Positions 33,918-53,575 of a stretch of 53,865 nt of DNA are shown in pieces. Every line of letters starts with the position of its first letter. The stretch's first letter is position 1. The position numbers and the translations under genes are program-made. The notes beneath the pieces were generated by a model that saw only the letters and a list, made by a program, of their open reading frames with translations, did not search any database and had not been told where the DNA came from. The stretch comes from a virus (Duplodnaviria > Caudoviricetes), in IMG/VR virus record IMGVR_UViG_3300011339_000645, positions 1-53,865 of that record; one strand, 5' to 3'.

Positions 33918-34235
33918 TCAAGTGTATTCCCTGACTATGTATCCTTTTTCCGTTGCCCATTTGACATTTTGGTGCAGGTAGGTGTGACATTGGCGGCATA
34001 CAGCCAAGAAAGTGCGCTTCTCGCAGGTGTTACGGCCTCTGCCGCTTTTATGGTGTATGTCTGTTGCTTCCCCACCACATATTTCACATCTCCCGTTTTT
34101 TTCTTCAAGATACTCTCTCCTTACCCTACTGTATTCAATGCTTCGCTTTTTGAGTCTGGCTGAAATGGGATTGAGCTTCCCTCCTCTTTTCTTGAATCCG
34201 CTTTTGGCTTTAAGTGGAGTTTTGCGTCTGAGCAT
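33918..34235 (-). CDS. Small Zn-binding HNH protein
   Basis: CEICG...DIHH...LAVCRQCH. Confidence 0.8.
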   Translation of the reverse strand: MLRRKTPLKAKSGFKKRGGKLNPISARLKKRSIEYSRVRREYLEEKNGRCEICGGEATDIHHKSGRGRNTCEKRTFLAVCRQCHTYLHQNVKWATEKGYIVREYT

Positions 34236-34474
34236 AAGACAATAATTTTACCGATCTGTTCTTTTTTGAGAACCGATTTTGCTGATGTTTCGATTTGATT
34301 GATAAGGCTACCAGTAACGCCAATTTTTTCACCAAGTTCACGCACGGAAAAACCAAGACGCAAACGAGCATCGCGCAAGTGTGCGCCAAACATCTTTCTA
34401 GCGTTATGCTTGATGTTTCTGCTATGCTCTATAGCTGATAGGTAGCTATTGTATGCGACTTCTAACTGGTGCAT
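34121..34474 (-). CDS. XRE-family helix-turn-helix regulator
   Basis: Probable start MHQLEV at 34474; FGAHLRDARLRLGFSVRELGEKIGVTGSLINQIET. Confidence 0.8.
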   Translation of the reverse strand: MHQLEVAYNSYLSAIEHSRNIKHNARKMFGAHLRDARLRLGFSVRELGEKIGVTGSLINQIETSAKSVLKKEQIGKIIVLCSDAKLHLKPKADSRKEEGSSIPFQPDSKSEALNTVG

Positions 34475-34482
34475 ATCGATGG

Positions 34483-34527
34483 AGTATAGACAAACATATT
34501 GACAGGTCAATCTTTTTTTTGTAGTAT
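34483..34527. promoter_or_regulatory. Overlapping divergent sigma70-like promoters
   Basis: Plus strand TTGACA(34499)-17-TAGTAT; minus strand TTGACC(34510)-16-TATACT; the two -35 boxes form TTGACAGGTCAA. Confidence 0.65.
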
Positions 34528-34535
34528 TGGAGGCT

Positions 34536-34931
34536 ATGGATAACCACAACAGCAACATTGATTTAGACATGACGGCATTCAAGTTTCTTGAGTTTGCCAG
34601 AAAGTCCGTTCTGATAACAAATATGTCTCTCGCCGAGGCGATGGGACAAGGAATCTTTTCGACTCACGAAGTCTTCAATGGAGATGGAGGCTACATGATC
34701 ATGGGAGTCCGACCAAACTCTACCGCACTCGCCGCGACCTACTCTGGAAAACGCATCCTTTGGTCTGAACTTGCCCTGATCAAAGATGAAGATTTGGAAC
34801 TCCATCACAAACTCCACGCTGTAGATTGCTCAGATGATCATATGTCTGATCTGGCTTGGACAAACCTCGTAGACCAGATCGAGGAATGGGTGAAGTGCGA
34901 GCGTGAAGAAATTGATTTGGATTATCGGTAA
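34536..34931 (+). CDS. Hypothetical protein
   Basis: Probable start MDNHNS at 34536; first gene of the rightward replication block. Confidence 0.65.
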   Translation: MDNHNSNIDLDMTAFKFLEFARKSVLITNMSLAEAMGQGIFSTHEVFNGDGGYMIMGVRPNSTALAATYSGKRILWSELALIKDEDLELHHKLHAVDCSDDHMSDLAWTNLVDQIEEWVKCEREEIDLDYR

Positions 34932-35124: not shown

Positions 35125-35949
35125 ATGAAATTAGTAAAACAACCTCAACGCTTATTCGTCCAGATGAAGAAGGCGGTATTGAGAGAGGACTTGATGAAGA
35201 TCACAGATGATGTGGTTCAAGCAATGGTTCTCGGACAAATGCTCTACTGGACTAAAACACTAGACAAGGTGAATGATTGGCTTTTCGAGGAGAACAAGCG
35301 ACTAGCTGAATACGATTTCCCGCAACACGAATACAATTACGGATGGATATACAAATCCGCTAAACAAATGCGGGAAGACTTAATGAACGCATTCAGCGAG
35401 GATTCAATCCAAAGAGCATTCGCGTCTCTTACGAAATGTGGAGTTCTTCTGAAACGGAACAACCCACTTTGCGGGTATGACAGGAAACTTCAGTATCGAA
35501 TTGATCTGGTTTTACTGCGCCGAAAGCTCAAGGAAATCGGTTGGGAAATGACAGATTTTGTCATGGATTCCATTCCGCAGGATGCGGCTTTCATTCCGCA
35601 GGGTGCGGAATCAATTCCGCTATATGCGGGAGCAATAGCAGAGATTAAAACAGAGAGTAAAAACAAAGAAACCCCTATAGTCCCCAATGGGGACGCAGCT
35701 TTGCTTTTTGATACCGAACCAAGTTCAGTTCCCAAGAAACGGAAACCCAAACTCGTCGATGATTCCTTCATCTCTGAACTCAAGAAACTAAACCCCACGA
35801 AAGATGTCGATGCTCAAGTCATCGCCGCAAAGAACTGGCTGCTCGCCCACCCACCGCGCCAGTTCACCAAACAATTCTTTTCTTCATGGATCAACCGAAC
35901 CAAACCAACGATTGATCCTGAAGGAAGCTGGAAACCAACAACCATCTAA
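35125..35949 (+). CDS. Replication initiator protein
   Basis: Winged-helix-like N-terminus (VLGQMLYW...GWIYKSAKQMREDL...SIQRAFASL), internal iterons, and location directly upstream of DnaB. Confidence 0.75.
   Translation: MKLVKQPQRLFVQMKKAVLREDLMKITDDVVQAMVLGQMLYWTKTLDKVNDWLFEENKRLAEYDFPQHEYNYGWIYKSAKQMREDLMNAFSEDSIQRAFASLTKCGVLLKRNNPLCGYDRKLQYRIDLVLLRRKLKEIGWEMTDFVMDSIPQDAAFIPQGAESIPLYAGAIAEIKTESKNKETPIVPNGDAALLFDTEPSSVPKKRKPKLVDDSFISELKKLNPTKDVDAQVIAAKNWLLAHPPRQFTKQFFSSWINRTKPTIDPEGSWKPTTI
35572..35629. repeat. Iteron-like repeats (putative replication origin)
   Basis: ATTCCGCAGGATGCGG, ATTCCGCAGGGTGCGG and ATTCCGCTATATGCGG at 35572, 35593 and 35614 (21-bp period), followed by an A-rich stretch. 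Confidence 0.7.
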
Positions 35950-35952
35950 CAC

Positions 35953-37233
35953 ATGAAACCCGCAACCAAACCAACCTATAACTTCAAAGTCGTAACCCCA
36001 ATGAAAGATGTACCTGTTCGATCATCGTCCGAGCAAGCCGCCTTGTCGCTGATGATGCAAGACCCAGACATCCTTACCAAGCAAAGCTGGGATGCCTCGT
36101 ATTTCCTCCTAGAAGCCCATAAAATCATTTTTGATGCGATAAAGGCTGTCCATAGCCGAGCGGGTAGGGCAGACGAGTTTATGGTCATTGCAGAGCTAGA
36201 GAACGCTGGTCTGAAAGAACTGGCTGGAGGAGATACTGCGATCTACGATATTCTCTCCTGCATCAGAATGGTTGCAGGAAAGGTCTGCCAAGACATCGCC
36301 GCCGATTACCGATACGAATTGCGGAAAGCAAAAGCCTACCGAGATTTAATCTCATACTGGGAAACAAACGAGCAAGACATCCGCCAAGGTCGGGGAAACA
36401 TGGAAGAGTTATCGGTAACGATAAACGCAATCCAGTATGATGACACAAAACCAAAGCGGACAAAGAAGGATATGCTTAACCAGATCATCGACGAGATGGA
36501 AGGTAAGGCGAAGAAGGATTGCTACTCGACTGGACTGATCCTCCTAGACCGAAACATGGGTGGAGGAATGCACAAAGGTGAGATGATGACTATCGCCGCT
36601 GAAACGGGTGGAGGAAAATCCATCCTATTAGTCCAAGCTATAGTAGCGAATCTCCTAGAAGGAAAATCCTGTCTATTCTTTTCCCTTGAAATGTCCGGTG
36701 AAGATATTTACCGCCGACTTGCATCCAACATGGCAGGCGTTCCAGTCCGCGAGATGGAAGACTACAAGATAAACTACGGAAGGGAACTGCCAGCAATCAC
36801 AGAGGCACTTACTAAACTCTACTCTCTTCCAATTGAGGTGATCGACTTCATGCATGACATGGATGCTATCGAGTCTGAGATCACTAGAGCAGCCAGCGAG
36901 AATCGTGCAGATGTAATTGCCGTGGACTACATCCAGATTCTAAATATGAATGACTCAGATAACAGGGAAACTGCTATATCCGAGGCCGCTAGAAGGCTAA
37001 AAACCCTAGCTGCAAAGCACAAATCTGTGCTTTTTACCGCCTCCCAAGTCAATGATGAGGGCCGCTTGCGGGAGTCTAGAGCCATAGGAATGCACTCAGA
37101 TCAGGTAGTCCAGATCGAACATAAGAACGAAAAGAGCAGGATTATCGTCAAAAAGAACCGCCGTGGAGCTAGAAACTACACCATTCCTGTAGAGATGAAG
37201 GGTGAAGTCAGCAGGTTTGTTGAGGTGTTCTAA
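35953..37233 (+). CDS. dnaB: DnaB-like replicative helicase
   Basis: AAETGGGKS, FFSLEMS, VDYIQIL, ASQVN, LRESRAI and KNRRG motifs. Confidence 0.92.
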   Translation: MKPATKPTYNFKVVTPMKDVPVRSSSEQAALSLMMQDPDILTKQSWDASYFLLEAHKIIFDAIKAVHSRAGRADEFMVIAELENAGLKELAGGDTAIYDILSCIRMVAGKVCQDIAADYRYELRKAKAYRDLISYWETNEQDIRQGRGNMEELSVTINAIQYDDTKPKRTKKDMLNQIIDEMEGKAKKDCYSTGLILLDRNMGGGMHKGEMMTIAAETGGGKSILLVQAIVANLLEGKSCLFFSLEMSGEDIYRRLASNMAGVPVREMEDYKINYGRELPAITEALTKLYSLPIEVIDFMHDMDAIESEITRAASENRADVIAVDYIQILNMNDSDNRETAISEAARRLKTLAAKHKSVLFTASQVNDEGRLRESRAIGMHSDQVVQIEHKNEKSRIIVKKNRRGARNYTIPVEMKGEVSRFVEVF

Positions 37234-37280
37234 ATAATTTTATTGACATACAATAATCAGAGGTATAGGAAATGTGTTCA

Positions 37281-37610
37281 ATGAACTCCAGAGCTAAAGG
37301 AGCAGTCGGCGAAAGAGAATGGCGTGACCAACTTCGTAATGAAGGATTCACAGCCCGTCGAGGTCAGCAATTTGCAGGAGGGCCAGATTCCCCAGATGTT
37401 ATCTGCGAGGAATTGTCCAACCTCCACATGGAGGTAAAGCGAGTGCAGAACCTCAATCTTGACAAAGCCTGCGAACAAGCAGAAAGAGATTCTCGCGGTA
37501 AACCATACATCGTGGCTCACCGCAAAAACAACAAGAAGTGGAAGGTTACAATGCCATCTGACCTTTTCTTCTCACTACTACGCGATGGCATGGAAGGTAT
37601 AAAAAAATGA
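37281..37610 (+). CDS. PD-(D/E)XK Holliday-junction resolvase-like nuclease
   Basis: NSRAKGAVGERE...PDV...HMEVKR. Confidence 0.8.
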   Translation: MNSRAKGAVGEREWRDQLRNEGFTARRGQQFAGGPDSPDVICEELSNLHMEVKRVQNLNLDKACEQAERDSRGKPYIVAHRKNNKKWKVTMPSDLFFSLLRDGMEGIKK

Positions 37611-37778: not shown

Positions 37779-38021
37779 ATGGAAAAGCGATTCACAAAGG
37801 TAGTTAAGAACCCAAAGACTGGTAGGACAAAGACAGTCAAGTATGGGCAGGCTGGTAAAGCTAAAGACGGAGGAGATCGCATTCGCCCCGGCACATCCAA
37901 AGGCGATGCTTATTGTGCTAGGTCAGCAAAGATCAAAGGAGATTGGAAGTCTGATCCCAATTCTCCAAACAACCTTTCACGCCGCAAGTGGCGTTGCAAA
38001 GGTAGTAAGTCAATGAAATGA
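37779..38021 (+). CDS. Small basic phage protein
   Basis: KNPKTGRTKTVKYGQ...YCARS...SRRKWRC. Confidence 0.75.
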   Translation: MEKRFTKVVKNPKTGRTKTVKYGQAGKAKDGGDRIRPGTSKGDAYCARSAKIKGDWKSDPNSPNNLSRRKWRCKGSKSMK

Positions 38022-38563
38022 TCTTCTCCAAGATCGCGCCTTTACCTACGCACAGATATGTCTTGGTGGATTCCGACTTCACGCACAAGAGTCCGTGTGG
38101 ACTTGTTGACGCCATGTGGGTTGGAATCACCAGCATCCCCGGCAGAGCATGGGGAATCAATGTCATTCTTAGGGATGGTGGTGCTTTGTATCGCAATCTG
38201 CCTCCTCATAGTATCGGATTTCATTCTGAAGACTTTGGGTGGACTATTCAGCAAGCTCAACTCTGGGATTGCTACTCATACCACTTCACCATCGTCCAAA
38301 GCCCGATCCTGCGAGGTCTGCGGATGCGAGCTAAAGTCAAAGGAGAACTCCTAACTGGAGAATACCTATTCCATGTCACCCATGTAGATGATGGGTGGTC
38401 AGACTCCCCAGACCAAGATAAGGAGTTTTACTTTATCAAGCTAGATAACGGAAGGCTAACCATCCAGCCGACGAATAGAATTACATTCGTAGATGCCAGC
38501 TTTATCGTTAACGATAAAATGCCAGAGTTAAAGTTGAGCGAAACTATTTATTCTTGCGAATAA
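38018..38563 (+). CDS. Hypothetical phage protein
   Basis: 181 aa with ATGA overlap; GALYRNLPPH, QLWDC and IKLDNGRLTIQPTNR motifs. Confidence 0.7.
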   Translation: MIFSKIAPLPTHRYVLVDSDFTHKSPCGLVDAMWVGITSIPGRAWGINVILRDGGALYRNLPPHSIGFHSEDFGWTIQQAQLWDCYSYHFTIVQSPILRGLRMRAKVKGELLTGEYLFHVTHVDDGWSDSPDQDKEFYFIKLDNGRLTIQPTNRITFVDASFIVNDKMPELKLSETIYSCE

Positions 38564-40781: not shown

Positions 40782-41128
40782 GCGAACGGCCTACACCAGA
40801 GACGGATGCGGCTGAAGCTAAACGCCGAGCTGAATGGCTACACAAACATAAAGCGCCAAAAAACTGGATTATTCTCACTATGTTTGAGGTTTCAACGATT
40901 CGCACAGACCTCATGGCCCTTGAGCGCGAGCGCGACGAGGCGCGGGAGGCGTTAGCTGAGGAAATAAGATTCCATCACCGGACTCACTCAGAACTAATCC
41001 AGACTCAATGCAGGCTTATGGATATGACGCAATCTATAATCCTCACACTAGAAGAAAATCGCAACCTATCGGACGGGGACGATTGCACACTAGCTAAACT
41101 GAAATCCGTAGTCCCAGACTGGAAGTAA
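40778..41128 (+). CDS. PTPETDA / ERDEAR-type coiled-coil protein
   Basis: MSERPTPETDA...LERERDEAR. Confidence 0.7.
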   Translation: MSERPTPETDAAEAKRRAEWLHKHKAPKNWIILTMFEVSTIRTDLMALERERDEAREALAEEIRFHHRTHSELIQTQCRLMDMTQSIILTLEENRNLSDGDDCTLAKLKSVVPDWK

Positions 41129-41152
41129 CAATTATCGTTAACGATAACCAAA

Positions 41153-41440
41153 ATGAAAAAAACCAAGAAACAAGAAATAGAAGCAATAAAAAAACAAAGA
41201 GACGAAGCATTAGAAAAATGGAAGACAGAAAGAAGTTTCTACTGCTCCTCTCAAGACGAGGTATTAAGACTAACATTTGAAAACAGATCCCTCCAGCAAG
41301 AAAACGACTTGCTGCGCGACAGAATACAAACCATCGCTTCAGTCTACTACGAGAATAAGAAGAAAAAAGAAAACTTCAAAAAGATGGAAGATTATTACTC
41401 AAGCCATTTTGAAGAAAATCTTGAACGCGCATTACAATGA
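41153..41440 (+). CDS. Hypothetical coiled-coil protein
   Basis: 95 aa; starts just after a palindrome copy; contains QRDEA. Confidence 0.6.
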   Translation: MKKTKKQEIEAIKKQRDEALEKWKTERSFYCSSQDEVLRLTFENRSLQQENDLLRDRIQTIASVYYENKKKKENFKKMEDYYSSHFEENLERALQ

Positions 41441-41625
41441 ACCAAAACGAAAAATCCAGAATCGCCGACTTAATTGAGGAAGTCATCAAAGCATCCAAAT
41501 CAGATAAAGAATCCATAGATCGAATCCACTACCTCGGCCACATAGACAGAAGCCAGAAACAATACCGAGTCTACCTAACATTCACAGAAGCTAAAGCACC
41601 AATATCAGACAGGAATCTAGACTAA
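41437..41625 (+). CDS. Hypothetical protein
   Basis: 62 aa with ATGA overlap. Confidence 0.55.
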   Translation: MNQNEKSRIADLIEEVIKASKSDKESIDRIHYLGHIDRSQKQYRVYLTFTEAKAPISDRNLD

Positions 41626-41656
41626 AAGGAAGATGTATTATCGTTAACGATAACCA

Positions 41657-42049
41657 ATGAACTGGGACGAATACGGAATACAGATAGCTCAAGTCGCCGC
41701 CCTCAAATCCAAAGACCCGTGGAAAAAAGTAGGCGCAGCCATCCTAAGAGAGGATAACACAATAGGAGGTATAGGATACAACGGCTTCCCCCAAGGAGTA
41801 AAAGAAGACTGGGAGAACAGAGACGAAAGAAGATTGCTTGTAGTCCACGCAGAACAAAACGCCCTCAGATACCTTAAACCCGGAGAAGGAAAGACACTCT
41901 ACTCCACCCTTCTCCCATGCAACGACTGCCTAAAAACAATCGCCGCCTACCAAATAAAGAGAGTCCTCTACAAAGACATCTACAACTACGATACCTCCTC
42001 CCTCCTCACAGCAAAGAAACTAGGCATAGAACTAGTCCAATACGAATGA
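41657..42049 (+). CDS. dCMP deaminase
   Basis: SKDPWKKVGA, GYNGFP, HAEQNAL and PCNDC motifs. Confidence 0.92.
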   Translation: MNWDEYGIQIAQVAALKSKDPWKKVGAAILREDNTIGGIGYNGFPQGVKEDWENRDERRLLVVHAEQNALRYLKPGEGKTLYSTLLPCNDCLKTIAAYQIKRVLYKDIYNYDTSSLLTAKKLGIELVQYE

Positions 42050-42276
42050 CAGAATCCAAACGACTACTAGACTTCGCCAAGTTCTACCTCGACCCCCGCG
42101 AACTACAAATCATAACCCTCAGACTCGGCCTCAATAGAAGGAAACCAAAAACCCTCCAAGCCATAGGAGAAATACTCAACCTATCCAGAGAACGGGTAAG
42201 GCAAATAGAGAGAATAGCCATACTAAAACTAAAGAAGGGTTTCAAGGATAGACAAGCAGCCAAGATAACAGGATAA
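42046..42276 (+). CDS. Stand-alone sigma70 region-4 HTH protein (76 aa)
   Basis: LDPRELQIITLRLGL...TLQAIGEILNLSRERVRQIERIAILKL; start by ATGA overlap. Confidence 0.85.
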   Translation: MTESKRLLDFAKFYLDPRELQIITLRLGLNRRKPKTLQAIGEILNLSRERVRQIERIAILKLKKGFKDRQAAKITG

Positions 42277-42562
42277 CCTGAGAAGCAAGGAAAAAGCATA
42301 AACCGAGTTTGTCTCGCTGCTGGAGGAAGGAAAACTGGATCACACGATAAGCACCAAAATGGGTTCTGTGTCGCTGTCTGGAGTGCTACGCTTATGGTTT
42401 TGAGCTGCAATCTAGGCTGTGTGGGGTGGCCCACCACCGCCGTCGCCCTCCTATAAGAAAAGAGATTCCTTTAAAGCTTGACGCTGTCTCACGCTCACGC
42501 TCACGCGCTTTTCTTTTATCGTTCAACGCTAAAAAATAACTAGGAAAAAATAAGATAATGGG

Positions 42563-42590
42563 TTGACGCAAAGGGGAATTGTGCTACTAT
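42563..42590 (+). promoter_or_regulatory. Strong early sigma70-like promoter
   Basis: A-rich UP region, then TTGACG-16 bp-TACTAT with extended TG. Confidence 0.7.
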
Positions 42591-42769
42591 TAATTTGTCA
42601 CCTGGAAAGGTTTCCGCTTGTGACATTTGATATTTGAAAGTTAGTTTGTTCACTTCATGTTTCGCATTCCGTTTTTCGGCCTGGAATCAATCCTGTGGAA
42701 ACATAACACGAAATCCGCATTCGTTGAATTAGCGTTTAACGATAGGTTCGGAAGATGGAAACTCGAGAC

Positions 42770-43471
42770 ATGAAAACAAAAGAGAAAAACGCAATAGCTG
42801 TGAAGAATGCAAAGGTTGAAATTGTGCGGGAGACTGGTTCGATTGAATCCATGCTAACGCAAACGCGCTCTGGATATATCCACGCTGATAAAAAGCTAAA
42901 CGACATACCAACGGCTGATCTGGTGAACTATGCGGTCGATAAGTTGACCGCTGGTCAGTCTGCTTTGCGGCAAGCTTGTCTTTTTACTGGTGCGATCTAT
43001 AAAACTTGCACAGAGGAGAAAGCCAAGCTTTATGCAGACGGGTTGTCTGTAGCATGGGGCGGAATGTCGAAGGATATTTTATCAATCGGCAAAGCCCTCC
43101 CCGATTTAGAATCAACTGGCTTGGCTTTGTCCAATGTTAAAGACCTGTATGGTTTGCGCGAGGTTAGGAAAATCCTTTTAGGGGATGACAAGACGCAAAC
43201 TAGTAAAGCTGTGGCCTTGCTTAATGAAGGAAAAGCCCCGCGTAAGGTTCGTGAGGCTGTTCTTGGAACCTCCAAAGGTGACAAAGAACCTGCTCCTAAG
43301 GATGAGCCTGCCGAGAAGATCGAAGATAGTGCCTTGGTCATCGAAACTCAGTTCATAAGATTGGCCGAGCGCGTGGCTCTTATGATCGATCACGATGATC
43401 GTGTGAAAGTGGCAATGCAGGTTTTCGCCAAGCTTAAGCTGGCTGGCTATGCAATGCAGAAAGTGAAGTGA
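42770..43471 (+). CDS. Early protein in its own transcription unit
   Basis: About 233 aa (start 42770 or 42755) between a strong promoter and a terminator. Confidence 0.75.
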   Translation: MKTKEKNAIAVKNAKVEIVRETGSIESMLTQTRSGYIHADKKLNDIPTADLVNYAVDKLTAGQSALRQACLFTGAIYKTCTEEKAKLYADGLSVAWGGMSKDILSIGKALPDLESTGLALSNVKDLYGLREVRKILLGDDKTQTSKAVALLNEGKAPRKVREAVLGTSKGDKEPAPKDEPAEKIEDSALVIETQFIRLAERVALMIDHDDRVKVAMQVFAKLKLAGYAMQKVK

Positions 43472-43476
43472 ACAAC

Positions 43477-43514
43477 AAAAATCGGGAGTGTCCTTCGGGA
43501 TGCTCCCATTTTTT
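43477..43514. terminator. Bidirectional intrinsic terminator
   Basis: AAAAATC-GGGAGTGTCC-TTCG-GGATGCTCCC-ATTTTTT between convergent genes. Confidence 0.85.
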
Positions 43515-43543
43515 GTGCCTAAATTTCCTGGCGATTTTGCCTT

Positions 43544-44143
43544 TTAGATTTCGACTAGCTCATCCTCATCCTGCTCTTCTTCGTTCTCGTTAACGATAGA
43601 ATTTACGGGCGCGATTTCCCCTTCAAAGATTTGAATGTTATGTTTCTCTGTAACATTTCCCATCTCATCCCTCATCGGCGGCGTCACATGAAGGGAGATC
43701 ATCGCATTCACGCTCATTGCCCGTTGGTTCTGAACCTCTTGCTGATCCAGTCCAAGCGTCCTCCTCGCAGTCTTGTCCAGCTCCGTGAGTAGTTCCAAGC
43801 GTTCCTTTTGTTCTTTTGTGCCTTTCAGCTTCTTCCTCTCATCAATCACTTTCCTCTCTTCTTCTAGCTGCTTCAGCATAAACCACAGATGCTGTTCGCT
43901 TTCCTCTCCCATCTTGTGGATGAGCTTTTTTTCTATTTTCGCTGATGCCTGCGTTCTGATCAGGTCGCGCTGCTTTGCCCATTTCTCTCTAACCATCACA
44001 TTCCTAAAGTAAAACGGGGACAGCCCTTTGTATTGTGGGAGTTTTGTTATGTCTGCAACATCAAGCCCGGCCATGTAGTGGGATTTGATTTCTTCCCAAT
44101 TCCACTTCTTTGGGCGTCCAATGTTTTCTGGGTTTCTATCCAT
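43544..44143 (-). CDS. Probable terminase small subunit
   Basis: GRPKKWNWEEIKSHYMAG...REKW HTH-type N-terminus, central helices ending RRTLGLD, acidic tail. Confidence 0.6.
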   Translation of the reverse strand: MDRNPENIGRPKKWNWEEIKSHYMAGLDVADITKLPQYKGLSPFYFRNVMVREKWAKQRDLIRTQASAKIEKKLIHKMGEESEQHLWFMLKQLEEERKVIDERKKLKGTKEQKERLELLTELDKTARRTLGLDQQEVQNQRAMSVNAMISLHVTPPMRDEMGNVTEKHNIQIFEGEIAPVNSIVNENEEEQDEDELVEI

Positions 44144-44150
44144 ATCGTTG

Positions 44151-44179
44151 ACGATAATCTGTCCACATTTTCATGTCAA
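44151..44179 (-). promoter_or_regulatory. Promoter whose -10 box is half of a palindrome copy
   Basis: TTGACA-17 bp-TATCGT, then 7 nt to the ATG at 44143. Confidence 0.55.
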
Positions 44180-44207
44180 ACTTTCTTCTTAAATCCACAA
44201 ATAAATG

Positions 44208-44235
44208 TTGACAGAAAATATATATGTGGTATTAT
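44208..44235 (+). promoter_or_regulatory. Strong early sigma70-like promoter
   Basis: TTGACA-16 bp-TATTAT with extended TG. Confidence 0.75.
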
Positions 44236-44438
44236 ATATATAGTCGATGGAGTAGTTCCATCTGACCATTGTTCCTTTAACATTTTAAATGTTTTCAGTT
44301 TCGGTTTTTCGTGGCCCCTGCCGCCTTTCTCTTTTGGCGGTGGGGGTAATGCGGCGCAAGTTCTCGTTAACGATAACTTGATGCGGTGACAAGCCCGTAA
44401 AGCATAACGCAAACGCAGAGTCACAACCACGAAACAAA

Positions 44439-44573
44439 ATGAATACACAGAAAGTAATCCTTGAGCTTATCAAATTGCTGTCGCAGGCAATTTATATTAT
44501 CCGCAATCATGGTGCAGAAGATGATGCAGATTATCTAGACAATAAACTTCAACAAATTATTGATCCAGAATAA
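44439..44573 (+). CDS. Small early protein (44 aa)
   Basis: Hand-translated MNTQKVILELIKLLSQAIYIIRNHGAEDDADYLDNKLQQIIDPE*; preceded by the CACGAAACAAA leader. Confidence 0.6.
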   Translation: MNTQKVILELIKLLSQAIYIIRNHGAEDDADYLDNKLQQIIDPE

Positions 44574-44574
44574 T

Positions 44575-44802
44575 ATGAACACAATCGAAGAAAGCGGAAC
44601 AATCACAATTAACTCGCCTGTTCATGGCGCGAAGTTTGTGTTTGCCAATCCAACCCAACAGCTTGTTTACAAGCGTCTCGTTGAACGATACAGCATCGAA
44701 CCTCGCAATATCTACAAAGGATTCTGCGGAGACAATGTTGTTATCTGCGAGTGGGATCACATCACAATCGGCATCGAGGAGGATGGATATGCACACTCGT
44801 GA
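44575..44802 (+). CDS. Small early protein
   Basis: Start MNTIEES; ends IGIEEDGYAHS. Confidence 0.7.
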   Translation: MNTIEESGTITINSPVHGAKFVFANPTQQLVYKRLVERYSIEPRNIYKGFCGDNVVICEWDHITIGIEEDGYAHS

Positions 44803-45028
44803 GATCACAACAGCAAAGGGTAACACCTATATTTGTCCAGTATTCACGGCTGATGAATATCAGGTCGTAACCTATGGCTTGTCTAATGACGGCTGGTGTC
44901 TCACCTGCGGCGAACTCGTCGATGATGTGGAACCAGACGCTCGAAAGTATATGTGCGGGTGCTGTGGTAAAAAATCCATCTATGGCTTGGAAGAGCTATT
45001 AATGATTGGCATCCTTCAAATCCAGTAA
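44783..45028 (+). CDS. Small zinc-ribbon early protein
   Basis: GWCLTCG...VEPDARKYMCGCCG...IYGLEELL; start at 44783 or 44789. Confidence 0.75.
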   Translation: MDMHTREITTAKGNTYICPVFTADEYQVVTYGLSNDGWCLTCGELVDDVEPDARKYMCGCCGKKSIYGLEELLMIGILQIQ

Positions 45029-45104
45029 TTAGCCACTCTGCTCTGTTATCGTTTAACGATAGCAGGGCAGCAGGCTGACTACAACCAGTCAGTAAAACAC
45101 GAAA
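45029..45104 (+). repeat. Early intergenic structured element, copy A
   Basis: TTAGCC-ACT-[CTGCTCTGTTATCGT-TTA-ACGATAGCAGGGCAG]-CA-GGCTGACT-ACAACC-AGTCAG-TAAAACACGAAA-ATG. Confidence 0.75.
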
Positions 45105-45782
45105 ATGATAATACATGAAACGCAAGACATCGTAGCAATTGCTACTCGCAATTCGACCAATCGCAAGACTGGTAAATCTGTCCAGATATGGATTCTTGAT
45201 GCAACCATGCATCCTGTAGAGTCCAGACGCTCTGGGCATGACGCAGACAACCAATGCAATGGATGCCCGTTCGCCTCCAATAATGGATGCTATGTGAACG
45301 CTAATCCTCTTGGTGCAATCTGGCGAGCCTATCAGCGGGGTTCATATGAATACCTTCAGATGGGAACTCGCGAGTGGCATGATTTCTTCTCTGTCCCATT
45401 TGTCCGCTTCGGCGCATACGGCAATCCATCCCATCTCCCAGTCGAGATGATCGATAGCATCGCCCGACTCTCCAAGCGTATCACAGGTTATTTCCATGAT
45501 TGGCATGAAATGCCAGTGCCACTTGCCAAAGCATATGGCCGCTACTTCATGGCTTCCTGTGAGCCTACCAATGTAGAGTATGCAAAGAACCTCGGACTCC
45601 GCACATTCACTATCAGCGAGACTCCTCTCGTTAACGATATTGAATGCCTCGCAGATTCCAAGGGGCTTTCCTGCTCACAATGTGGTTTGTGTGACGGCAA
45701 CAATCGTCGCTCATCCCTTCCATCCGTGTGGATCAATCCTCACGGCTATCAACTCAAGAAAGCTGTAGAAGTAGTCAAATGA
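45105..45782 (+). CDS. Cys-rich putative Fe-S/Zn protein (Gp88-like)
   Basis: NRKTG, CNGCPF...CYV, VRFGAYGNP, TGYFHDW and C...CSQCGLC motifs; family name is tentative. Confidence 0.6.
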   Translation: MIIHETQDIVAIATRNSTNRKTGKSVQIWILDATMHPVESRRSGHDADNQCNGCPFASNNGCYVNANPLGAIWRAYQRGSYEYLQMGTREWHDFFSVPFVRFGAYGNPSHLPVEMIDSIARLSKRITGYFHDWHEMPVPLAKAYGRYFMASCEPTNVEYAKNLGLRTFTISETPLVNDIECLADSKGLSCSQCGLCDGNNRRSSLPSVWINPHGYQLKKAVEVVK

Positions 45783-45955
45783 GAGAAGCAAAACGCTACA
45801 AACCATCCGCTCTAGCCTCACAGAAGTGGGTCGATGAGTGGGAAAACCGCACAGACAAAGAAACCAATGATGCCAAGGACAAGTTCTTGTGGCTTCTATT
45901 GATTCTTATCGTGAACCTCGGCCTTGTCGCGCTGATGTTCGCACTCAAGTGGTAG
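45779..45955 (+). CDS. Small membrane protein
   Basis: Start MREAKR by ATGA overlap; C-terminal TM helix. Confidence 0.6.
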   Translation: MREAKRYKPSALASQKWVDEWENRTDKETNDAKDKFLWLLLILIVNLGLVALMFALKW

Positions 45956-46032
45956 CAGACACTCTGGTTATCGTCAACGATAGCCAGCAGTCTGCTTGCA
46001 TGGTGCAAGTGGAAAACCAAACACGAAACAAA
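45954..46032 (+). repeat. Early intergenic structured element, copy B
   Basis: AGCAGAC-ACT-[CTGGTTATCGT-CA-ACGATAGCCAG]-CA-GTCTGCTTGCA-TGG-TGCAAGTGGA...ACACGAAACAAA-ATG. Confidence 0.8.
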
Positions 46033-46320
46033 ATGAACACATACTACATCAAACAAGACGACGGAACATTCGCAGAGGTTACATTCTCTGATGGAATGCT
46101 AATCACAATGCTCACAGAGAAACTCGTAAAAGATGCTCTGTGGAATGCTAGCGCAATCATCAATGAGAGGGTTAACAAGCGGGTTAGTGAAGAGATTGAC
46201 AAGCTCAACATTGCTCAATCCGTTCAGAGTATTGCTGATGATCTAGATATGGAGGATATGGTCAAAGACTCTATCGAATCATATCTAGACAATGTAAGCT
46301 GGGATTTGCGAGTCTGTTAG
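46033..46320 (+). CDS. Small early protein
   Basis: Start MNTYYIK after element B. Confidence 0.7.
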   Translation: MNTYYIKQDDGTFAEVTFSDGMLITMLTEKLVKDALWNASAIINERVNKRVSEEIDKLNIAQSVQSIADDLDMEDMVKDSIESYLDNVSWDLRVC

Positions 46321-46401
46321 TCAGACACACCGCTCATTATCGTTTAACGATAGTGGGCGGTAGTCTGATAGCATGGTGCTATTAGTAAACACGAAACACA
46401 T
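46320..46401 (+). repeat. Early intergenic structured element, copy C
   Basis: TCAGAC-ACA-[CCGCTCATTATCGT-TTA-ACGATAGTGGGCGG]-TA-GTCTGATAGCA-TGG-TGCTATTAG-TAAACACGAAACACAT-ATG. Confidence 0.8.
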
Positions 46402-46836
46402 ATGAAAATAGATGATTACATTATCGACAAACTCAATGAAGAGTTTGAGTCAATTGACATTAAAGAAGCTACCAAGGATATGCTCGATGAGTCTTATCCT
46501 TTCATCAATCTAGGTGGCCCGTTCACCTATATGTCCGCTGGTCATGTGCTAGAGCATTATGATCATTCTGCATTCCGTGAGGAGGTTAATAACTATACTG
46601 ACCTCATGGTTAGAGATGGGAATTGGTATGAGTTCCAAAATAATTATTGGGGCAAGTCCGCCGAGCGCGTAGCAGATGAGTATCGACTTGCTCTTCAGCA
46701 TTGTGATCCATTCCAAGTCACAGGTGTCGAGCATCCCGGCTGGTATTACTACGACAAGATGTCATTCTCGCAGGGGCCGTTCAACTCCCCCGATGAATGC
46801 TACGATCATGCCCTAGATCAATACTACAAGATATGA
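46402..46836 (+). CDS. Acidic, aromatic-rich early protein
   Basis: 144 aa, very D/E/Y-rich. Confidence 0.7.
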   Translation: MKIDDYIIDKLNEEFESIDIKEATKDMLDESYPFINLGGPFTYMSAGHVLEHYDHSAFREEVNNYTDLMVRDGNWYEFQNNYWGKSAERVADEYRLALQHCDPFQVTGVEHPGWYYYDKMSFSQGPFNSPDECYDHALDQYYKI

Positions 46837-47018
46837 ACACGCCAGTAATAGATCGCCCAGAGATTCAAGACATACTAGCTCAACTCAAGAATCTTGATCG
46901 TGAGGGATGGTGCGGCATTACCGATGGTTCATTTGATGATGAGCCTAGCTCAAGCGTCGAACTGACAATCCAATATGCGATGAATTACATTCTAAGTGAA
47001 ATTGTAATTAATAAATGA
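46833..47018 (+). CDS. Small acidic early protein
   Basis: Start MNTPVID by ATGA overlap. Confidence 0.6.
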   Translation: MNTPVIDRPEIQDILAQLKNLDREGWCGITDGSFDDEPSSSVELTIQYAMNYILSEIVINK

Positions 47019-47111
47019 TCAGACACTCCGCTCATCCGAAAGGGTGGGCGGCAGTCTGGTTATCGTTGACGATAATCGGAAACCAAACGAAACAACAAAC
47101 GAAACAAACAC
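47017..47111 (+). repeat. Early intergenic structured element, copy D
   Basis: GATCAGAC-ACT-[CCGCTCATCC-GAAA-GGGTGGGCGG]-CA-GTCTGGTTATCGT-TG-ACGATAATCGGA...AACGAAACAAACAC-ATG. Confidence 0.8.
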
Positions 47112-47333
47112 ATGACAACAGTAATAGACACACAGGAAGGGTTGGAGATGTATAATCTTCTCCGACTCAAAAGCGCATTAAAGTTAGAAGTTGCAGGCAT
47201 GAAGCATTCAAGCGGCAAGTCCGTGTATGCCCATGTCAAACGCAGATTCGGATTCAAAGGCTCGAAAGAGTCTGTCCTTCAGCAACTCATCAACTACATC
47301 AACACAACCTACGGAGTAGACTTCGTAAAATAA
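47112..47333 (+). CDS. Small early protein
   Basis: LKSALKLEVAGMKHS...FGFKGSKESVLQQL. Confidence 0.75.
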   Translation: MTTVIDTQEGLEMYNLLRLKSALKLEVAGMKHSSGKSVYAHVKRRFGFKGSKESVLQQLINYINTTYGVDFVK

Positions 47334-47337
47334 AAGT

Positions 47338-47574
47338 ATGACACTAGATATAAAGCCAGAAGATTCAATTGGCGAGGAAATCGCATCGCAAATCAGATCA
47401 ACAGGATCAAAATTTACCATAACAATGGTAGATGATCTTGATGGTCAAGAAACAGCCATTCTTGCAGATCAAGACTGGAATGACATGACGATTATCCAAA
47501 CCATTGGCGGTGAAATCAAGGTGACTCATCTTGATGAGAAAGAAATAGCAGCAATCAAAGCAATACTTCTATGA
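47338..47574 (+). CDS. Small acidic protein
   Basis: 78 aa, coupled to neighbours. Confidence 0.65.
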   Translation: MTLDIKPEDSIGEEIASQIRSTGSKFTITMVDDLDGQETAILADQDWNDMTIIQTIGGEIKVTHLDEKEIAAIKAILL

Positions 47575-47711
47575 GCGCAACAGAAAGAACCCAACCAACC
47601 TGTCTTCCGCCAGAAGCCTACATTCGCTTGTGGGCCAATGCCAAGACAGACAAGGAACCAAAGTTCCAGTCTTCCGTTTACCCAAAGAAAAAGAAGGAGC
47701 CAAAGAAATGA
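47571..47711 (+). CDS. Small basic protein (46 aa)
   Basis: Hand-translated MSATERTQPTCLPPEAYIRLWANAK...KKKKEPKK*; ATGA overlaps on both sides. Confidence 0.55.
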   Translation: MSATERTQPTCLPPEAYIRLWANAKTDKEPKFQSSVYPKKKKEPKK

Positions 47712-49318
47712 CTCTTTCTAGTCTTATTGATTGCGTTGACTTTAGTCAGCCAATGCGACTCCAGACCAAGCGTGGGTTGCGCCTTCTTCGGAAGGCGTCT
47801 CCCACCAAGGAGTTCTGGGATATCTACAGGTCAGACAAGGAAGTGTTCTCATCCGAGCTTCGGAAGCTAGGGATTCAAGTATCAGAATTCCGTGGCAATT
47901 GGGAACTATCATGGTGGTCGAAGGATGATCTTTCCTTCCCGGCTATCCATGACTTCGCTGTCTCAGAGCAGAAGGATGAGCCTATCGTTTACGATATGCC
48001 TTCCCTCATGCATCCAGAGAACTTGTTTGAGTATCAACTCACATCAGTTCAGCTAGGATTGCGCTCGATGATGAAGTATAACCGCGCTCTTCTCGGTCAT
48101 GGCACAGGCATGGGCAAGACGGCAATCGCCCTTGCTATCGCCCGTGAGCGTGGCCGTAAGGTCGCAGTCATCTGTCCCAAGCCAATCGTCACAGACTGGC
48201 ATAGGATGGCAAAATACCTCGGCGTAGAAACGCATGAAGTATGTGGATGGGAATGGGTCAAGACTGGTAAGTCTAACATTGGTCGCTGGACAGATGATAA
48301 GAAGAAGGAATTCAAGTATCATCTGCCTCCAGATGTTGATCTCATCTTCGACGAGGTTCATCGCGGCAAAGGAATGGGAACACAGAACGCATACCTAGTT
48401 AGGGATGCAGTTGTTCAGAATGTCCCTGCCCTAGCATTATCGGCAACGATAGCAGATGACCCTACCAAGATGTGGGCAATCGGCCAGTTCCTTGGCTTGC
48501 ACAGAGGTAGTGACTACTATCCCTTTCTTCATAGGAATGGGTGCGTAAAGACCCAATGGGGTATGCAGTTCCGTGGTGGAATGAAAGTCCTTCGTTCTAT
48601 TCACAAAAGCATATTCCCAGATCGCGGCAATCGCCTCAAACCATCCGATGTCGGTGATGCGTTTCCAGAGACTCTCATCCATGCCAGAGCATTCGACATG
48701 GATAGTGCCAAGGAAATCGCTACCGAATACGACAAGCTACTGACTCGCATCGAGGAACTGCGTATGCAGGAAAACTTCGCGGCCAATGTCCTAGCAGAAC
48801 AAACCAGAGCAAGACAAGCTATCGAGCTTCTTAAGGCTCCAGCCGTTTGTTCTCTGGTCAAGGACTTGACCGAAGAAGGCAACTCAGTCTTCATCGCAGT
48901 CAACTATGTAGAGACACTCAAGTTCATGGAGGAGGAAATCAAGACCAAATGCACGATCCAAGGTGGTCAGAATGACCTCACCCGCCGGGGAAATATCGAT
49001 TCATTCCAGAACGATAAATCCAGAGTAATCATAGGAATCATCCAAGCCTGCCGTGAAGGTCTTAACCTCCATGACTTGAATGGTGATCATCCTCGCGTTG
49101 CTCTCATCATGCCTACCTACTCAGTCTTCGATCTCAAGCAAGTCTTGGGTCGAGTTCACCGAGCAGGCGGCAAATCAAAATCAATCCAATACCTAGTCTA
49201 CGCCGCTGGCGTTGCTTTGGAAGAGGATATCTGTAATTCACTAGACAAGAAACTGAAACAAATGGATCAACTGATGGATGGAGAAGTAGATGCTTCCATC
49301 TCTCTAGTTGCCAAGTAA
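47708..49318 (+). CDS. Superfamily-2 (SNF2/DEXH-like) helicase
   Basis: GTGMGKT, DEVH, SAT, EGLNL and QVLGRVHR motifs; probable start MTLSSL. Confidence 0.9.
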   Translation: MTLSSLIDCVDFSQPMRLQTKRGLRLLRKASPTKEFWDIYRSDKEVFSSELRKLGIQVSEFRGNWELSWWSKDDLSFPAIHDFAVSEQKDEPIVYDMPSLMHPENLFEYQLTSVQLGLRSMMKYNRALLGHGTGMGKTAIALAIARERGRKVAVICPKPIVTDWHRMAKYLGVETHEVCGWEWVKTGKSNIGRWTDDKKKEFKYHLPPDVDLIFDEVHRGKGMGTQNAYLVRDAVVQNVPALALSATIADDPTKMWAIGQFLGLHRGSDYYPFLHRNGCVKTQWGMQFRGGMKVLRSIHKSIFPDRGNRLKPSDVGDAFPETLIHARAFDMDSAKEIATEYDKLLTRIEELRMQENFAANVLAEQTRARQAIELLKAPAVCSLVKDLTEEGNSVFIAVNYVETLKFMEEEIKTKCTIQGGQNDLTRRGNIDSFQNDKSRVIIGIIQACREGLNLHDLNGDHPRVALIMPTYSVFDLKQVLGRVHRAGGKSKSIQYLVYAAGVALEEDICNSLDKKLKQMDQLMDGEVDASISLVAK

Positions 49319-49324
49319 AGAAAT

Positions 49325-49370
49325 GGGGCAGATTCACAGGTTAATTCCTGCGGTCTGCCCCTTTTTGTTT
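49325..49370 (+). terminator. Intrinsic terminator
   Basis: GGGGCAGA...TCTGCCCC-TTTTTGTTT, directly followed by a palindrome variant. Confidence 0.75.
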
Positions 49371-49473
49371 ATCGTTAACGAGAATTTTTCCCGCTGTCAC
49401 ATGGTAACCCTTAAACTTGCGACCATGTAACACTCCGCTTTTGCGGGGAGGTATTAGCTCACGGGAAAAGTTG

Positions 49474-49728
49474 TTACTCCTCTTTCTTCTCGTCTGGTGG
49501 TCGGCGTTCCATACCGATGCGGTAGTGCAGGAACGCTAGGCCAAGATACTTGATCGCTTCCGATCCTTCTTGGTATCGCGCTCCCGTCCTCACCACCATC
49601 TGAGCAAGGAGGTTTGCCGTGCTGGCGAAGGCGTGGATAGCCTCGTCAGTCTTTTCATTGTTCGTTGTTGGAAACGAGAAGATCGTTTTCAGACTCTCGT
49701 TCAGTTCATTTGCTGGGTTGTTTTCCAT
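49474..49728 (-). CDS. Hypothetical protein
   Basis: 84 aa; last gene of the leftward block. Confidence 0.6.
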   Translation of the reverse strand: MENNPANELNESLKTIFSFPTTNNEKTDEAIHAFASTANLLAQMVVRTGARYQEGSEAIKYLGLAFLHYRIGMERRPPDEKKEE

Positions 49729-52128: not shown

Positions 52129-52365
52129 TTACCAGTTTTCCTCGTTTATTGTTAATGATTTCTTTTCCTTCGTTGACCTGTCGTAGATGTAATAGAAGTC
52201 AAATACTCCGCTAAGAGAGATGTGAACTTCCCATCGGCTTGTTGGATCAACAGTTTCGTCTATGTCTGCTGGAGGCTGGATTGCCATCCAATCTAATGCT
52301 TCTTGTCTATTCTCTTCTGGCAGCATTGCCAGTCTTTCAATAGATGGCAATAGTCTTTTACTCAT
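52129..52365 (-). CDS. Hypothetical protein
   Basis: Probable start MSKRLLP at 52365. Confidence 0.6.
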   Translation of the reverse strand: MSKRLLPSIERLAMLPEENRQEALDWMAIQPPADIDETVDPTSRWEVHISLSGVFDFYYIYDRSTKEKKSLTINEENW

Positions 52366-53227
52366 GTGTTTGGTATTTGGTTTTGTAGTAGTGGCAGAAT
52401 GGTGCGACAGAGCAGAACCGCTCGCATCGTATGTCACCACCCGCACGGGTTTCTATGCTATGCTTTGCTCCGTAGGATGGAAGAAGATTCTGTGCTTCCT
52501 CCATCGTGGAACAAACTTTTACTGCCCTCTTGCCACCCTCTTTCTTGATGGCAAAGGTATCTGCTTTAGCCCACCGCTCTTCGGGCGAGCATTCTGGGAT
52601 GTCATCGTCGAGCTTCTTGGCTGCGGCTTGATGCAAGGCGACTCGCTCCGTAGCGTAAGCGATGCACTCTGCTTCACTCCACAATGGAATGTCAACGATG
52701 TGGACTGCACACTTAGGGTAGTCATTCTCATACTCAGCCTTGCTCGACTGCCAGTCCCGAAGGATGGCGACGATCTGACCTTTCTTGACTTCATACCCAT
52801 AGCTCCTCCAGAGCATGGCATTCAAGTTGATCTGCGCTTCCCACTCACTCTTGGTTCCAAGCATGAATGAGAAGACCGATGTTACCTTGAAGTCGGAGAT
52901 GGTTTTGCTCTCCGTCTCGTAGAGATCAGTCTGACCAGACAATGTCCAACCATTGATGTCCATGTAGAGTCGGCGTTCTGTCTGCTCTGTCTCGCCGCCT
53001 GCTAGTTCAAGGACTTTGTGGACTGACTGACCTAACAGAGTCCAGACCCTGTCGGATGCGTCCTCTGTGATCTCTTCCCCATGCCGCTTGCGAAGCTGGA
53101 AGATTTTCGGTGGGCCTATCAAGCTAGTCACCGAGATGTCGAATGGCTTCGCACCCGGTGTGTATCCATCATGGCTCAACGCACGAAACATTGGGGCTGG
53201 TAGCCCGTGATTGTTTGTGATCTTCAT
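52358..53227 (-). CDS. PD-(D/E)XK exonuclease (Cas4/RecB-like)
   Basis: LGQSVH, GQTDLY, ISDFKVT and QINLN motifs with C-terminal RCERFCSVAPFC. Confidence 0.85.
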   Translation of the reverse strand: MKITNNHGLPAPMFRALSHDGYTPGAKPFDISVTSLIGPPKIFQLRKRHGEEITEDASDRVWTLLGQSVHKVLELAGGETEQTERRLYMDINGWTLSGQTDLYETESKTISDFKVTSVFSFMLGTKSEWEAQINLNAMLWRSYGYEVKKGQIVAILRDWQSSKAEYENDYPKCAVHIVDIPLWSEAECIAYATERVALHQAAAKKLDDDIPECSPEERWAKADTFAIKKEGGKRAVKVCSTMEEAQNLLPSYGAKHSIETRAGGDIRCERFCSVAPFCHYYKTKYQTHE

Positions 53228-53452: not shown

Positions 53453-53476
53453 TAGTTTTATTTCTATCGTTAACGA

Positions 53477-53514
53477 TAAAAGAAAAAGAGGGGCCGATTA
53501 CTCAGCCCCCCTCT
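53477..53514 (-). terminator. Intrinsic terminator ending the virion operon
   Basis: GC-rich GAGGGGG...CCCCCTC hairpin followed by TTTTTCTTTT on the minus strand. Confidence 0.75.
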
Positions 53515-53575
53515 CACGAAACGAACACATGAAAACACCGACAACTAGTGCCAGTCCAGCAAGGATACTCGGATA

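Follow-up and report, generated by a model that had tools for sequence, protein, structure and literature searches.

The small early genes of phages often serve host takeover or counter-defence, and how a phage shuffles them without wrecking their expression is a long-standing question. To our knowledge, the promoter/terminator PeSL of T4-type phages is the only worked example of such shuffling. The question is raised by the early operon of an uncultured phage (Duplodnaviria; Caudoviricetes) represented by IMG/VR record IMGVR_UViG_3300011339_000645, the whole of which (53,865 nt, hereafter the window) was analyzed. An earlier note on this DNA proposed that four hairpin elements of common architecture separate the early genes, act at the RNA level and may also serve the exchange of gene cassettes.

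This article describes the structure, distribution and possible role of these elements. Judged from about 120 distinct natural copies, the module appears as a well-supported new structured RNA motif, located at points where the gene content of related phages differs. No description of it was found in the literature, where parallels were looked for and not this sequence; as matches in Rfam, GenBank phages and PHROG were lacking too, the element is taken not to be in print.

Architecture of the Elements

The window holds exactly four copies of the module (elements A to D, Table 1), all on the + strand and within the early operon. From 5' to 3' the module comprises the upstream stop codon, stem P1 (CAGAC/GUCUG), a 3x2 internal loop, a variable stem P2, a small hairpin P3, the motif AACACGAAA(C) and the ATG of the next gene. 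Each element begins 1-2 nt past the upstream stop codon, the stops ending at 45028, 45955, 46320 and 47018. P1 reads AG[A/C]C...G[G/T]CUG in the four copies, with an AGCC/GGCU version in A, and the internal loop is AC[U/A] opposite [C/U]A. The inner stem P2 has 10-15 bp and a different sequence in every copy, so that P1 and P2 stack to 22 bp in A and C and to 17 bp in B and D. After P3 follows A[C/A]ACGAAA(C) and, 0-18 nt on, the ATG (45105, 46033, 46402 and 47112). A palindrome, TATCG..CGATA, tops P2 in A-C and forms P3 in D, where a GAAA loop closes P2. The four positions, every feature of the shared architecture, the placing of the palindrome and the GAAA loop had all been described in the earlier note and were borne out, with the extents listed in Table 1.

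Folding z-scores of -6.4 (A), -4.5 (B), -6.0 (C) and -6.2 (D) were obtained, and none of 200 shuffles folded as well. A covariance model built from 20 copies and run on the window with filters off gave four + strand hits of 49-90 bits; the reverse strands of the same elements scored 17.5-25.6 bits and everything else at most 14.1 bits. By both measures the four elements are more than chance.

The position of the module relative to genes is nearly fixed. An open reading frame (ORF) of at least 40 codons ends between -2 and +6 nt before AG[A/C]CAC in 58 of 61 distinct contexts, the gap being exactly 2 nt in 46; the three exceptions are a locus edge, a slot with a four-codon remnant and a pattern match in record L236 that the model does not confirm. 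Given this distance, a ribosome stopping at the upstream stop codon must cover the 5' strand of P1. The start region AACACGAAAC is unstructured, A/C-rich and devoid of a Shine-Dalgarno sequence, and it stays open in every predicted fold; the elements themselves stay clear of the start codon, at a distance of 30-60 nt.

The leader of the operon ends in a minimal downstream half of the module lacking P1 and P2 (Table 1), and the covariance model finds no full element there. ACGAAAC likewise occurs apart from a full element before the + strand gene at 53529 (53465-53531), as it does before the gene at 44439; a copy or variant of the palindrome and a GC-rich hairpin lie upstream of both starts.

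Covariation in Related Phages and Metagenomes

A close relative, L001 (SNF2-type helicase 95% identical), carries five copies of the element. Scanning IMG/VR with a three-block pattern returned 18 stretches in 16 contigs and placed the module in phage records about 50-60 kb long, belonging to one clade of uncultured phages. The model confirmed copies in 15 other records besides the window, amounting to 69 copies, 53 of them distinct, with 2-6 per record. In the more distant relative L002 (record G006; helicase 60% identical) the elements are absent and the palindrome is present. The same pattern found 87 stretches in metagenome contigs, 80 of which were run through the model, giving 171 copies at E <=1e-5; the metagenome figures below refer to the best 150 of these 171, which come from 58 stretches and comprise 93 distinct sequences. 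Pooling the viral copies with these best 150 yields 120 distinct copies.

Among the 53 distinct viral copies, 97.4% of 1026 pair cells hold standard pairs and both sides have changed at 15 of the 20 pairs, and sliding the partner by 1-3 columns cuts pairing to 21-54%. The 93 distinct metagenome copies agree closely (97.0% of 1796 cells paired; both-side changes at 14 of 20 pairs), and an alignment not fitted to the model (MAFFT and RNAalifold, 20 copies) retains compensation at 13 of 20 pairs. In shuffle controls of the viral copies the observed value was reached by 0/500 on four of five measures and by 6/500 on the fifth; since the copies share descent and the larger alignments (A3, A4, A8) are fitted to the model, and so biased towards structure, these controls overstate significance and are to be read as counts, not probabilities. 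The covariation is genuine, and the claim that pairing is kept while primary sequence differs was thereby extended from four copies to a population.

Sequence is also retained at some positions. In the copies of alignments A2 and A4 the 3' side of the internal loop is [C/U/A]A, opposite AC[U/A], and the 3x2 loop is conserved; the TATCG..CGATA stem is found in 107 of the 120 distinct copies, with loops of 3-5 nt. Rfam, searched over 43000-48500 at E up to 10, returned five weak matches, none over an element, the best with 22.2 bits against a gathering score of 67.2. Both the model-based search of phages and metagenomes and the Rfam comparison had been suggested beforehand; the first found the module widely and the second assigns it to no family. 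The best Rfam match, to a twister-P1 ribozyme in the operon leader (44343-44426; E 0.31), is probably due to chance.

Strand of the Structure

It is the sense strand that carries the structure. There the model scores 49-90 bits, about three times the 17-30 bits of the antisense strand, and the sense RNA is the more stable in all 52 distinct copies compared (mean -27.7 versus -20.0 kcal/mol; Wilcoxon p = 3.5e-10); this comparison and the survey of P3 tails described below each left out one copy, in which the 3' strand of P1 is off pattern. The P1/P2 hairpin itself is predicted at -24 to -32 kcal/mol. U.G pairs are common and keep a fixed orientation, at two P2 positions in 37/53 and 39/53 copies, and on the opposite strand they would be C.A mismatches. 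Twenty-nine distinct copies have GAAA as the apical loop on the TATCG stem, against two with the complement TTTC. This evidence favors RNA as the carrier of the fold, in line with the earlier suggestion. Single-stranded DNA of the sense strand may be an alternative carrier: with DNA parameters it also folds better than its complement, and single-stranded DNA tolerates G.T wobbles.

Two Alternative Pairings

P3 had been thought to re-use part of P1, making the two stems partly exclusive, and this holds throughout the family: the best hairpin after P1 contains the CUG of the P1 3' strand, usually as UCUG, in 51 of 51 distinct tails. P3 loops fall into classes of 3, 4 and 6 nt. In the tails with a 3-nt loop (20 of 23 aligned), 179 of 180 cells pair and three pairs are compensated; the partners of the invariant CUG in these 20 tails are only CAG, UAG, CGG and UGG, exactly the four compatible triplets. 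When full-length copies are folded, about half adopt P1 and P2 and about half P2 with an extended P3, at similar energy. Conservation therefore extends to the two-state fold.

Where the P3 loop reads CAUGGUG it holds an AUG. This AUG opens a 10-codon mini-ORF in element C, whose TGA overlaps the ATG of gene 46402 (46374-46405), and lies in frame with gene 46033 in element B, adding 11 codons (46000-46035). Other copies read CAUAGUG, with no AUG, and the AUG in the P3 loop may be incidental.

Gene Groups and Cassette Exchange

The relatives share an array backbone. It runs from small genes and element A to a variable slot and a further element, E, then to the gene for a DUF7227/GP88-like protein of 225 aa with a small gene and element B, an ORFan and element C, and a gene of 140-156 aa, with or without a small gene, followed by another element; a second variable slot and the last element then lead to a 67-78-aa gene, small genes and the helicase. 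Neither the conserved array proteins nor 10 variable-cassette proteins gave an informative family match.

Three records, the window, L243 and L244, lack the slot after A and carry one hybrid element at this place; in nine other records the slot holds six unrelated fillings (the filling of G002 being that of G001). In L241 (reverse strand, element pair 4542-4713) two complete elements surround a four-codon ORF, an "empty" slot whose remnant preserves the opening 10 nt and the closing 9 nt of the two-gene cassette of L001; its genes were deleted and both elements kept. One two-gene cassette (f18+f19) lies after A in L001 and L239 and after the third gene group in G004, where, in comparison with L242, a shared 16-nt block (the 3' strand of P1 plus the 5' arm of P3) borders the insertion. 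Replacement is seen between the window and L001, whose proteins along the array are 98, 97, 44, 96, 99 and 95% identical: the nucleotide sequences diverge some 70 nt inside the third-group gene, and identity resumes exactly at its stop codon and element C. Element A of the window is itself a hybrid: its body is of type A, and its junction with the gene found after E in relatives lies inside AAACACGAAA.

By these comparisons related phages have gained, lost or replaced genes, with breakpoints in conserved element blocks. The breakpoints lie at four places, namely AAACACGAAA, the P1 3' strand/P3 arm, the stop codon/P1 5' edge and the inside of genes, and because they occupy several element blocks and sometimes genes, homologous exchange through shared linkers is indicated and not the action of a single-site recombinase. 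A comparison of the genes lying between elements in relatives had been recommended, and with its empty slots, six fillings and one moved cassette it upholds the idea of a cassette-exchange module: relatives differ by whole genes at the elements, and the same two-gene cassette can occupy different slots.

A Candidate RNA Processing Junction

The strong sigma-70-type promoter ahead of the array (Table 1) is the best of 14 promoter-like sites in 41000-49600 and the likely source of a polycistronic early transcript; as it precedes the array, the elements most likely lie inside one early transcript. The scan of this interval found no promoter-like or terminator-like site inside any of the four elements, and no U-tract follows the stem. 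According to PMC1540722 (Introduction), a typical substrate of Escherichia coli RNase III has a helix of about two turns, an internal loop confines cutting to one of the strands, and the 3' hairpin that remains protects against 3'-5' exonucleases.

By analogy, each element may be an intercistronic RNA junction, that is, an RNase III-type processing or stabilizing site whose conserved blocks also drive homologous cassette exchange; we give this preferred reading about an even chance. The P1/P2 stack, 17-22 bp broken by the 3x2 loop, would be cut on one strand at the loop by the host RNase III or a phage enzyme. The upstream message would keep the P2 hairpin as a protective 3' cap, and the freed GUCUG would refold into the extended P3, leaving a downstream message with a 5' hairpin followed by an open start region, so that every gene group would become a separately stable message. 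The recombination genes of the phage (exonuclease and RusA-like resolvase, Table 1) would swap the genes between junctions homologously, and expression would not be upset because the same conserved blocks stand at every junction. Release of GUCUG for P3 by a cut at the loop would also explain why two mutually exclusive pairings are both conserved.

Several points weigh against this reading, besides the fitted alignments, the shared descent of the copies and the folding of sense-strand DNA mentioned above. Cleavage, transcript ends and even co-transcription are inferred. With only about 17 bp, the stacks of B and D fall on the short side for E. coli RNase III. P1, the internal loop and the TATCG stem are strongly conserved in sequence, which suggests a partner that reads specific letters and not an RNase that takes any double strand. 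Neither of the two folds covers AACACGAAAC or the ATG, and thus no regulatory output of the two-state fold is seen. Some breakpoints fall outside the elements (about 70 nt within a gene; the L241 deletion is cassette-internal). Finally, the host was not identified by tRNAs or by the species-genome scan described below, and hence the relevant nuclease is not named.

Alternative Readings

The stability of the P1/P2 hairpin, placed directly past the stop codon, would suit a structural insulator that is never cut by an endonuclease: P1/P2 would block 3' exonucleases or pause or attenuate RNA polymerase, and P3 with the A-rich tract would form a ribosome standby site, in agreement with a start region open in every predicted fold. 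PeSL stem-loops work as terminators, as stated in the accessible portion of PMC2839356. The lack of a U-tract after the hairpin and of any terminator-like site in the elements speaks against this role, which moreover leaves the conserved internal loop, the P1 sequence and the alternative P3 pairing unexplained, and we hold it to be possible but unlikely.

Another reading is an operator for a phage-encoded RNA-binding regulator that would recognize P1 and the internal loop, the UAUCG stem or both, and act on translation, stability or antitermination of the early genes, perhaps shutting them off later in infection. Sequence as well as pairing is kept in CAGAC/GUCUG, in the loop AC[U/A]/[C/U]A and in the TATCG..CGATA stem, the P3 loops are conserved, and elsewhere in the genome several start codons have the same palindrome 0-7 nt ahead of them. 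A candidate RNA-binding protein was not found, and the array genes gave no informative family matches; the distance of the elements from the start codon and the location of 7 of the 22 palindrome sites within coding sequence also argue against it. An operator is accordingly considered rather doubtful.

In a bolder reading each cassette would carry a translation-coupled gate based on the two-state fold: a ribosome terminating at the stop codon set into P1 would melt P1, GUCUG would flip into the extended P3, and this would decide whether the junction is cut or the next group is expressed. The folded strand may in addition be a substrate of phage structure-specific nucleases (the two EndoVII/HNH-like proteins and the RusA-like one), which would start exchange. 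If true, this would be a phage "RNA-defined gene cassette" system; we regard it as decidedly unlikely.

In its layout the array also resembles an integron, with a promoter followed by promoterless same-strand genes, each with an imperfect palindrome made of a conserved outer stem, an unpaired spacer and a variable tip. The elements would then be structure-specific recombination sites acting as DNA, a folded single strand being recognized by a recombinase that moves cassettes downstream of one promoter, and both the strand-specific structure and the slots found empty or filled with different genes would fit. The tyrosine recombinase family PF00589 was not found in the four related records searched (G000, G001, G006 and G007, three of them complete; control genomes 14/14), breakpoints at four places point to homology-driven exchange and not to one crossover point, and the preference for GAAA over TTTC loops fits RNA. 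This makes a DNA-level site very improbable.

Least probable of all, and barely to be entertained, is a promoter function, be it a hairpin promoter for a phage RNA polymerase or a PeSL-type composite promoter/terminator cassette. P3, a hairpin of 5-7 bp with a loop of 3 nt, resembles the hairpin promoters of the N4 type; the giant unannotated ORF at 2-7378 may be counted on the same side. The position between stop codon and ATG and the apparent evolutionary role are those of PeSLs (PMC2839356, in the part available). None of the 14 promoter-like sites of 41000-49600 lies inside an element, P3 loops come in three size classes, the giant ORF has no family or solved-structure match, and a strong host-type promoter already stands ahead of the array. 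Two further candidates were rejected: a miniature inverted-repeat transposable element, as the four copies show no target duplications, no further copy lies outside the array and a transposase is lacking, and a CRISPR-repeat mimic (a hairpin followed by ..GAAAC), as no Rfam CRISPR direct-repeat family matches and the distance from hairpin to motif varies.

The Palindrome and the Genome

The palindrome TATCGTTAACGATA has 16 exact copies in the window, and TATCGT-N1-4-ACGATA occurs at 22 sites versus 0.04 expected. It is common to the relatives, including the one that has no elements. Several copies stand immediately upstream of start codons on either strand; three are placed 6-12 nt upstream of a -35-like TTGACA or TTGACT box (30743-, 32838-, 53478-), and one overlaps a -10 box. 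As a general -10 box the palindrome was discarded, a -35 box at 16-18 nt being not clearly enriched (11/52 site orientations score at least 4/6, versus 12.6% of random positions). Of the asymmetric variants across the genome, 22 have a GNRA loop on the coding strand and 12 on the opposite one, with three unclear, the strand calls being crude and a few of the rows being embedded in elements. At the divergent gene 43544-44143 (- strand; 44141-44179) the order is TTGACA, 17 nt, TATCGT of the palindrome, 7 nt and ATG, which looks like a leaderless message with its -10 box in the palindrome, a layout that would suit an operator.

CheckV rates the record 100% complete. At the nucleotide level nothing in GenBank phages matches the window; no protein of a cultured phage exceeds 24% identity to its SNF2-type helicase, and most of its large ORFs have no match in PHROG, Pfam or PDB. 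The recognizable genes are listed in Table 1. The giant ORF at 2-7378 (- strand), with at least 2459 codons, runs off the record end, contains palindrome copies at 2848, 4223 and 6613 and has no PHROG, Pfam or PDB match. GC content falls to 0.32 at 30-32 kb and to 0.36 at 14-16 kb.

Of 81 crudely called genes no more than 15 show a Shine-Dalgarno-like motif, and several promoters are of the TTGACA/TAnnnT type, which indicates that the host uses sigma-70-type promoters and makes little use of Shine-Dalgarno sequences. No tRNAs are present in the window. When the three-block pattern was run against one genome each of about 186,000 species, 19 hits were returned, none a real element by the covariance model (best 18.9 bits, E 0.06). 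A 181-aa protein (38018-38563) has a PHROG match annotated as ferredoxin in the auxiliary-metabolic category (E 1e-29), possibly a hint at host physiology.

Table 1. Elements, gene groups and other features of the window.
Feature	Position	Strand	Details
Promoter, sigma-70-type, strong	44208-44235	+	TTGACA, 16 nt, TG-TATTAT; 11/12 consensus positions, extended -10
Leader end	44362-44438	+	palindrome variant with one mismatch 44362-44375; ACGAAAC 44429-44435; first ATG 44439
Gene group 1	44439-44573, 44575-44802, 44789-45028	+	last encodes a small Cys-rich protein conserved in relatives
Element A	45028-45104	+	P1 5' strand 45028-45034; loop ACT; P2 45038-45070 with palindrome cap 45047-45061; loop CA
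Element A, 3' part	45073-45104	+	P1 3' strand 45073-45079; P3 45074-45093, loop ACAACC; ACGAAA 45099-45104; 77.5 bits
Gene group 2	45105-45782, 45779-45955	+	225-aa DUF7227/GP88-like protein (phrog_2554, E 1.6e-35); 58-aa ORF
Element B	45954-46032	+	P1 AGCAGAC/GTCTGCT; P2 10 bp capped by TATCGTCAACGATA; P3 CTTGCA-TGG-TGCAAG, extendable over UCUG; ACGAAAC 46023-46029; 65.7 bits
Gene group 3	46033-46320	+	single ORFan, 44% identical to L001 counterpart; L001 neighbors 96-99%
Element C	46320-46401	+	P1 GTCAGAC/GTCTGAT; P2 15 bp, palindrome cap 46338-46352; P3 ATAGCA-TGG-TGCTAT, extendable over CUG; ACGAAAC 46391-46397; 89.5 bits
Gene group 4	46402-46836, 46833-47018	+
Element D	47018-47111	+	P1 ATCAGAC/GTCTGGT; P2 10 bp, GAAA loop; P3 = palindrome 47061-47074; ACGAAAC 47087-47093 and 47099-47105; 49.1 bits
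Conserved genes after last element	47112-47333, 47338-47574, 47571-47711, 47708-49318	+	first phrog_19182; last SNF2-type helicase
Palindrome sites, examples	4223, 11163, 16963, 27810, 30730, 32825, 41133, 41639, 44143, 53465
EndoVII/HNH-like gene	27222-27809	-	phrog_1035; palindrome directly upstream (27810)
EndoVII/HNH-like gene	30065-30688	-	phrog_1035; palindrome directly upstream (30730)
Third HNH nuclease gene	33290-33895	-
Repressor-like helix-turn-helix protein	34121-34570
Replication initiator/loader-like protein	35125-35949
DnaB-type helicase	35953-37233
RusA-like resolvase	37272-37610
dCMP deaminase	41657-42049
Exonuclease	52358-53227
Tail fiber or spike proteins			among the recognizable genes

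Comparison With Known Systems

In the early region of phage T7, RNase III sites are irregular hairpins between the cistrons of an early polycistronic transcript made by the host polymerase. These sites appear closest to the elements in the proposed mechanism, the likeness being one of structure alone: intercistronic hairpins in a predicted early transcript, with a stacked helix of 17-22 bp, to be compared with about two turns, and an internal loop that would limit cutting to one strand and leave a protective 3' hairpin. There is no sequence similarity and no Rfam match, and two of the copies described here reach only about 17 bp. We know of no conserved alternative P3 pairing, fixed distance to a stop codon or role in gene exchange for the T7 sites.

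Integron attC sites are imperfect palindromes that follow promoterless same-strand genes downstream of one promoter, with conserved outer stems, an unpaired spacer, a variable tip and a strand-specific fold. The array layout and the strand-specific fold are the same in the elements, which differ in the lack of a tyrosine recombinase in the four records searched, in crossover points that are scattered instead of occupying one fixed outer-box position, and in an RNA-type loop bias.

In evolutionary behavior the closest system is that of the PeSLs of T4-type phages, repeated motifs between stop codon and ATG that flank ORFans in a variable region (PMC2839356, PMC4122927, as far as available). In the same portion of PMC2839356, insertions, deletions and replacements between close relatives cross over within the motifs, which are regarded as portable linkers allowing genes to be swapped without disturbing their neighbors. 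The elements likewise place a stable stem-loop between an upstream stop codon and a downstream ATG, and crossovers of insertions, deletions and replacements between relatives fall within them too. The parallel with PeSLs drawn in the earlier note thus stands for this behavior and fails for membership, since a PeSL is defined, in the available text, by a strong sigma-70-like promoter and a terminator stem-loop, whereas the elements have neither promoter nor U-tract. Nor does that text describe for PeSLs a two-part covarying helix, a conserved internal loop or a two-state sense fold.

In layout the elements come closest, by analogy, to the SAS/ESAS repeats of Cluster K mycobacteriophages. As presented in the available parts of PMC3203893 and PMC12699233, SAS is a short asymmetric motif just upstream of many starts and in one orientation, imperfect inverted repeats around a variable spacer precede a subset, relatives keep the sites together with their gene, and the function still awaits verification. 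The elements, too, combine a motif close to the start with imperfect inverted repeats ahead of it, all in one orientation. The SAS consensus GGGATAGGAGCCC (PMC3203893) is unrelated to AACACGAAAC and AACACGAAA(C), which lie outside the two mismatches accepted for SAS; the ESAS arms are a conserved 17-bp sequence, whereas P2 varies freely with compensation, and the available parts of these sources report neither a two-state fold nor a role in cassette exchange.

The elements would therefore represent PeSL-like modularity achieved by a different device, a covarying two-state RNA junction within a single operon. The motif may give direct access to RNA processing in phages of hosts that rarely rely on Shine-Dalgarno sequences and serve as a metagenome marker for the variable early-gene repertoire of this clade, and it offers a link to the mycobacteriophage SAS/ESAS repeats, which share a similar layout and have no proven function.

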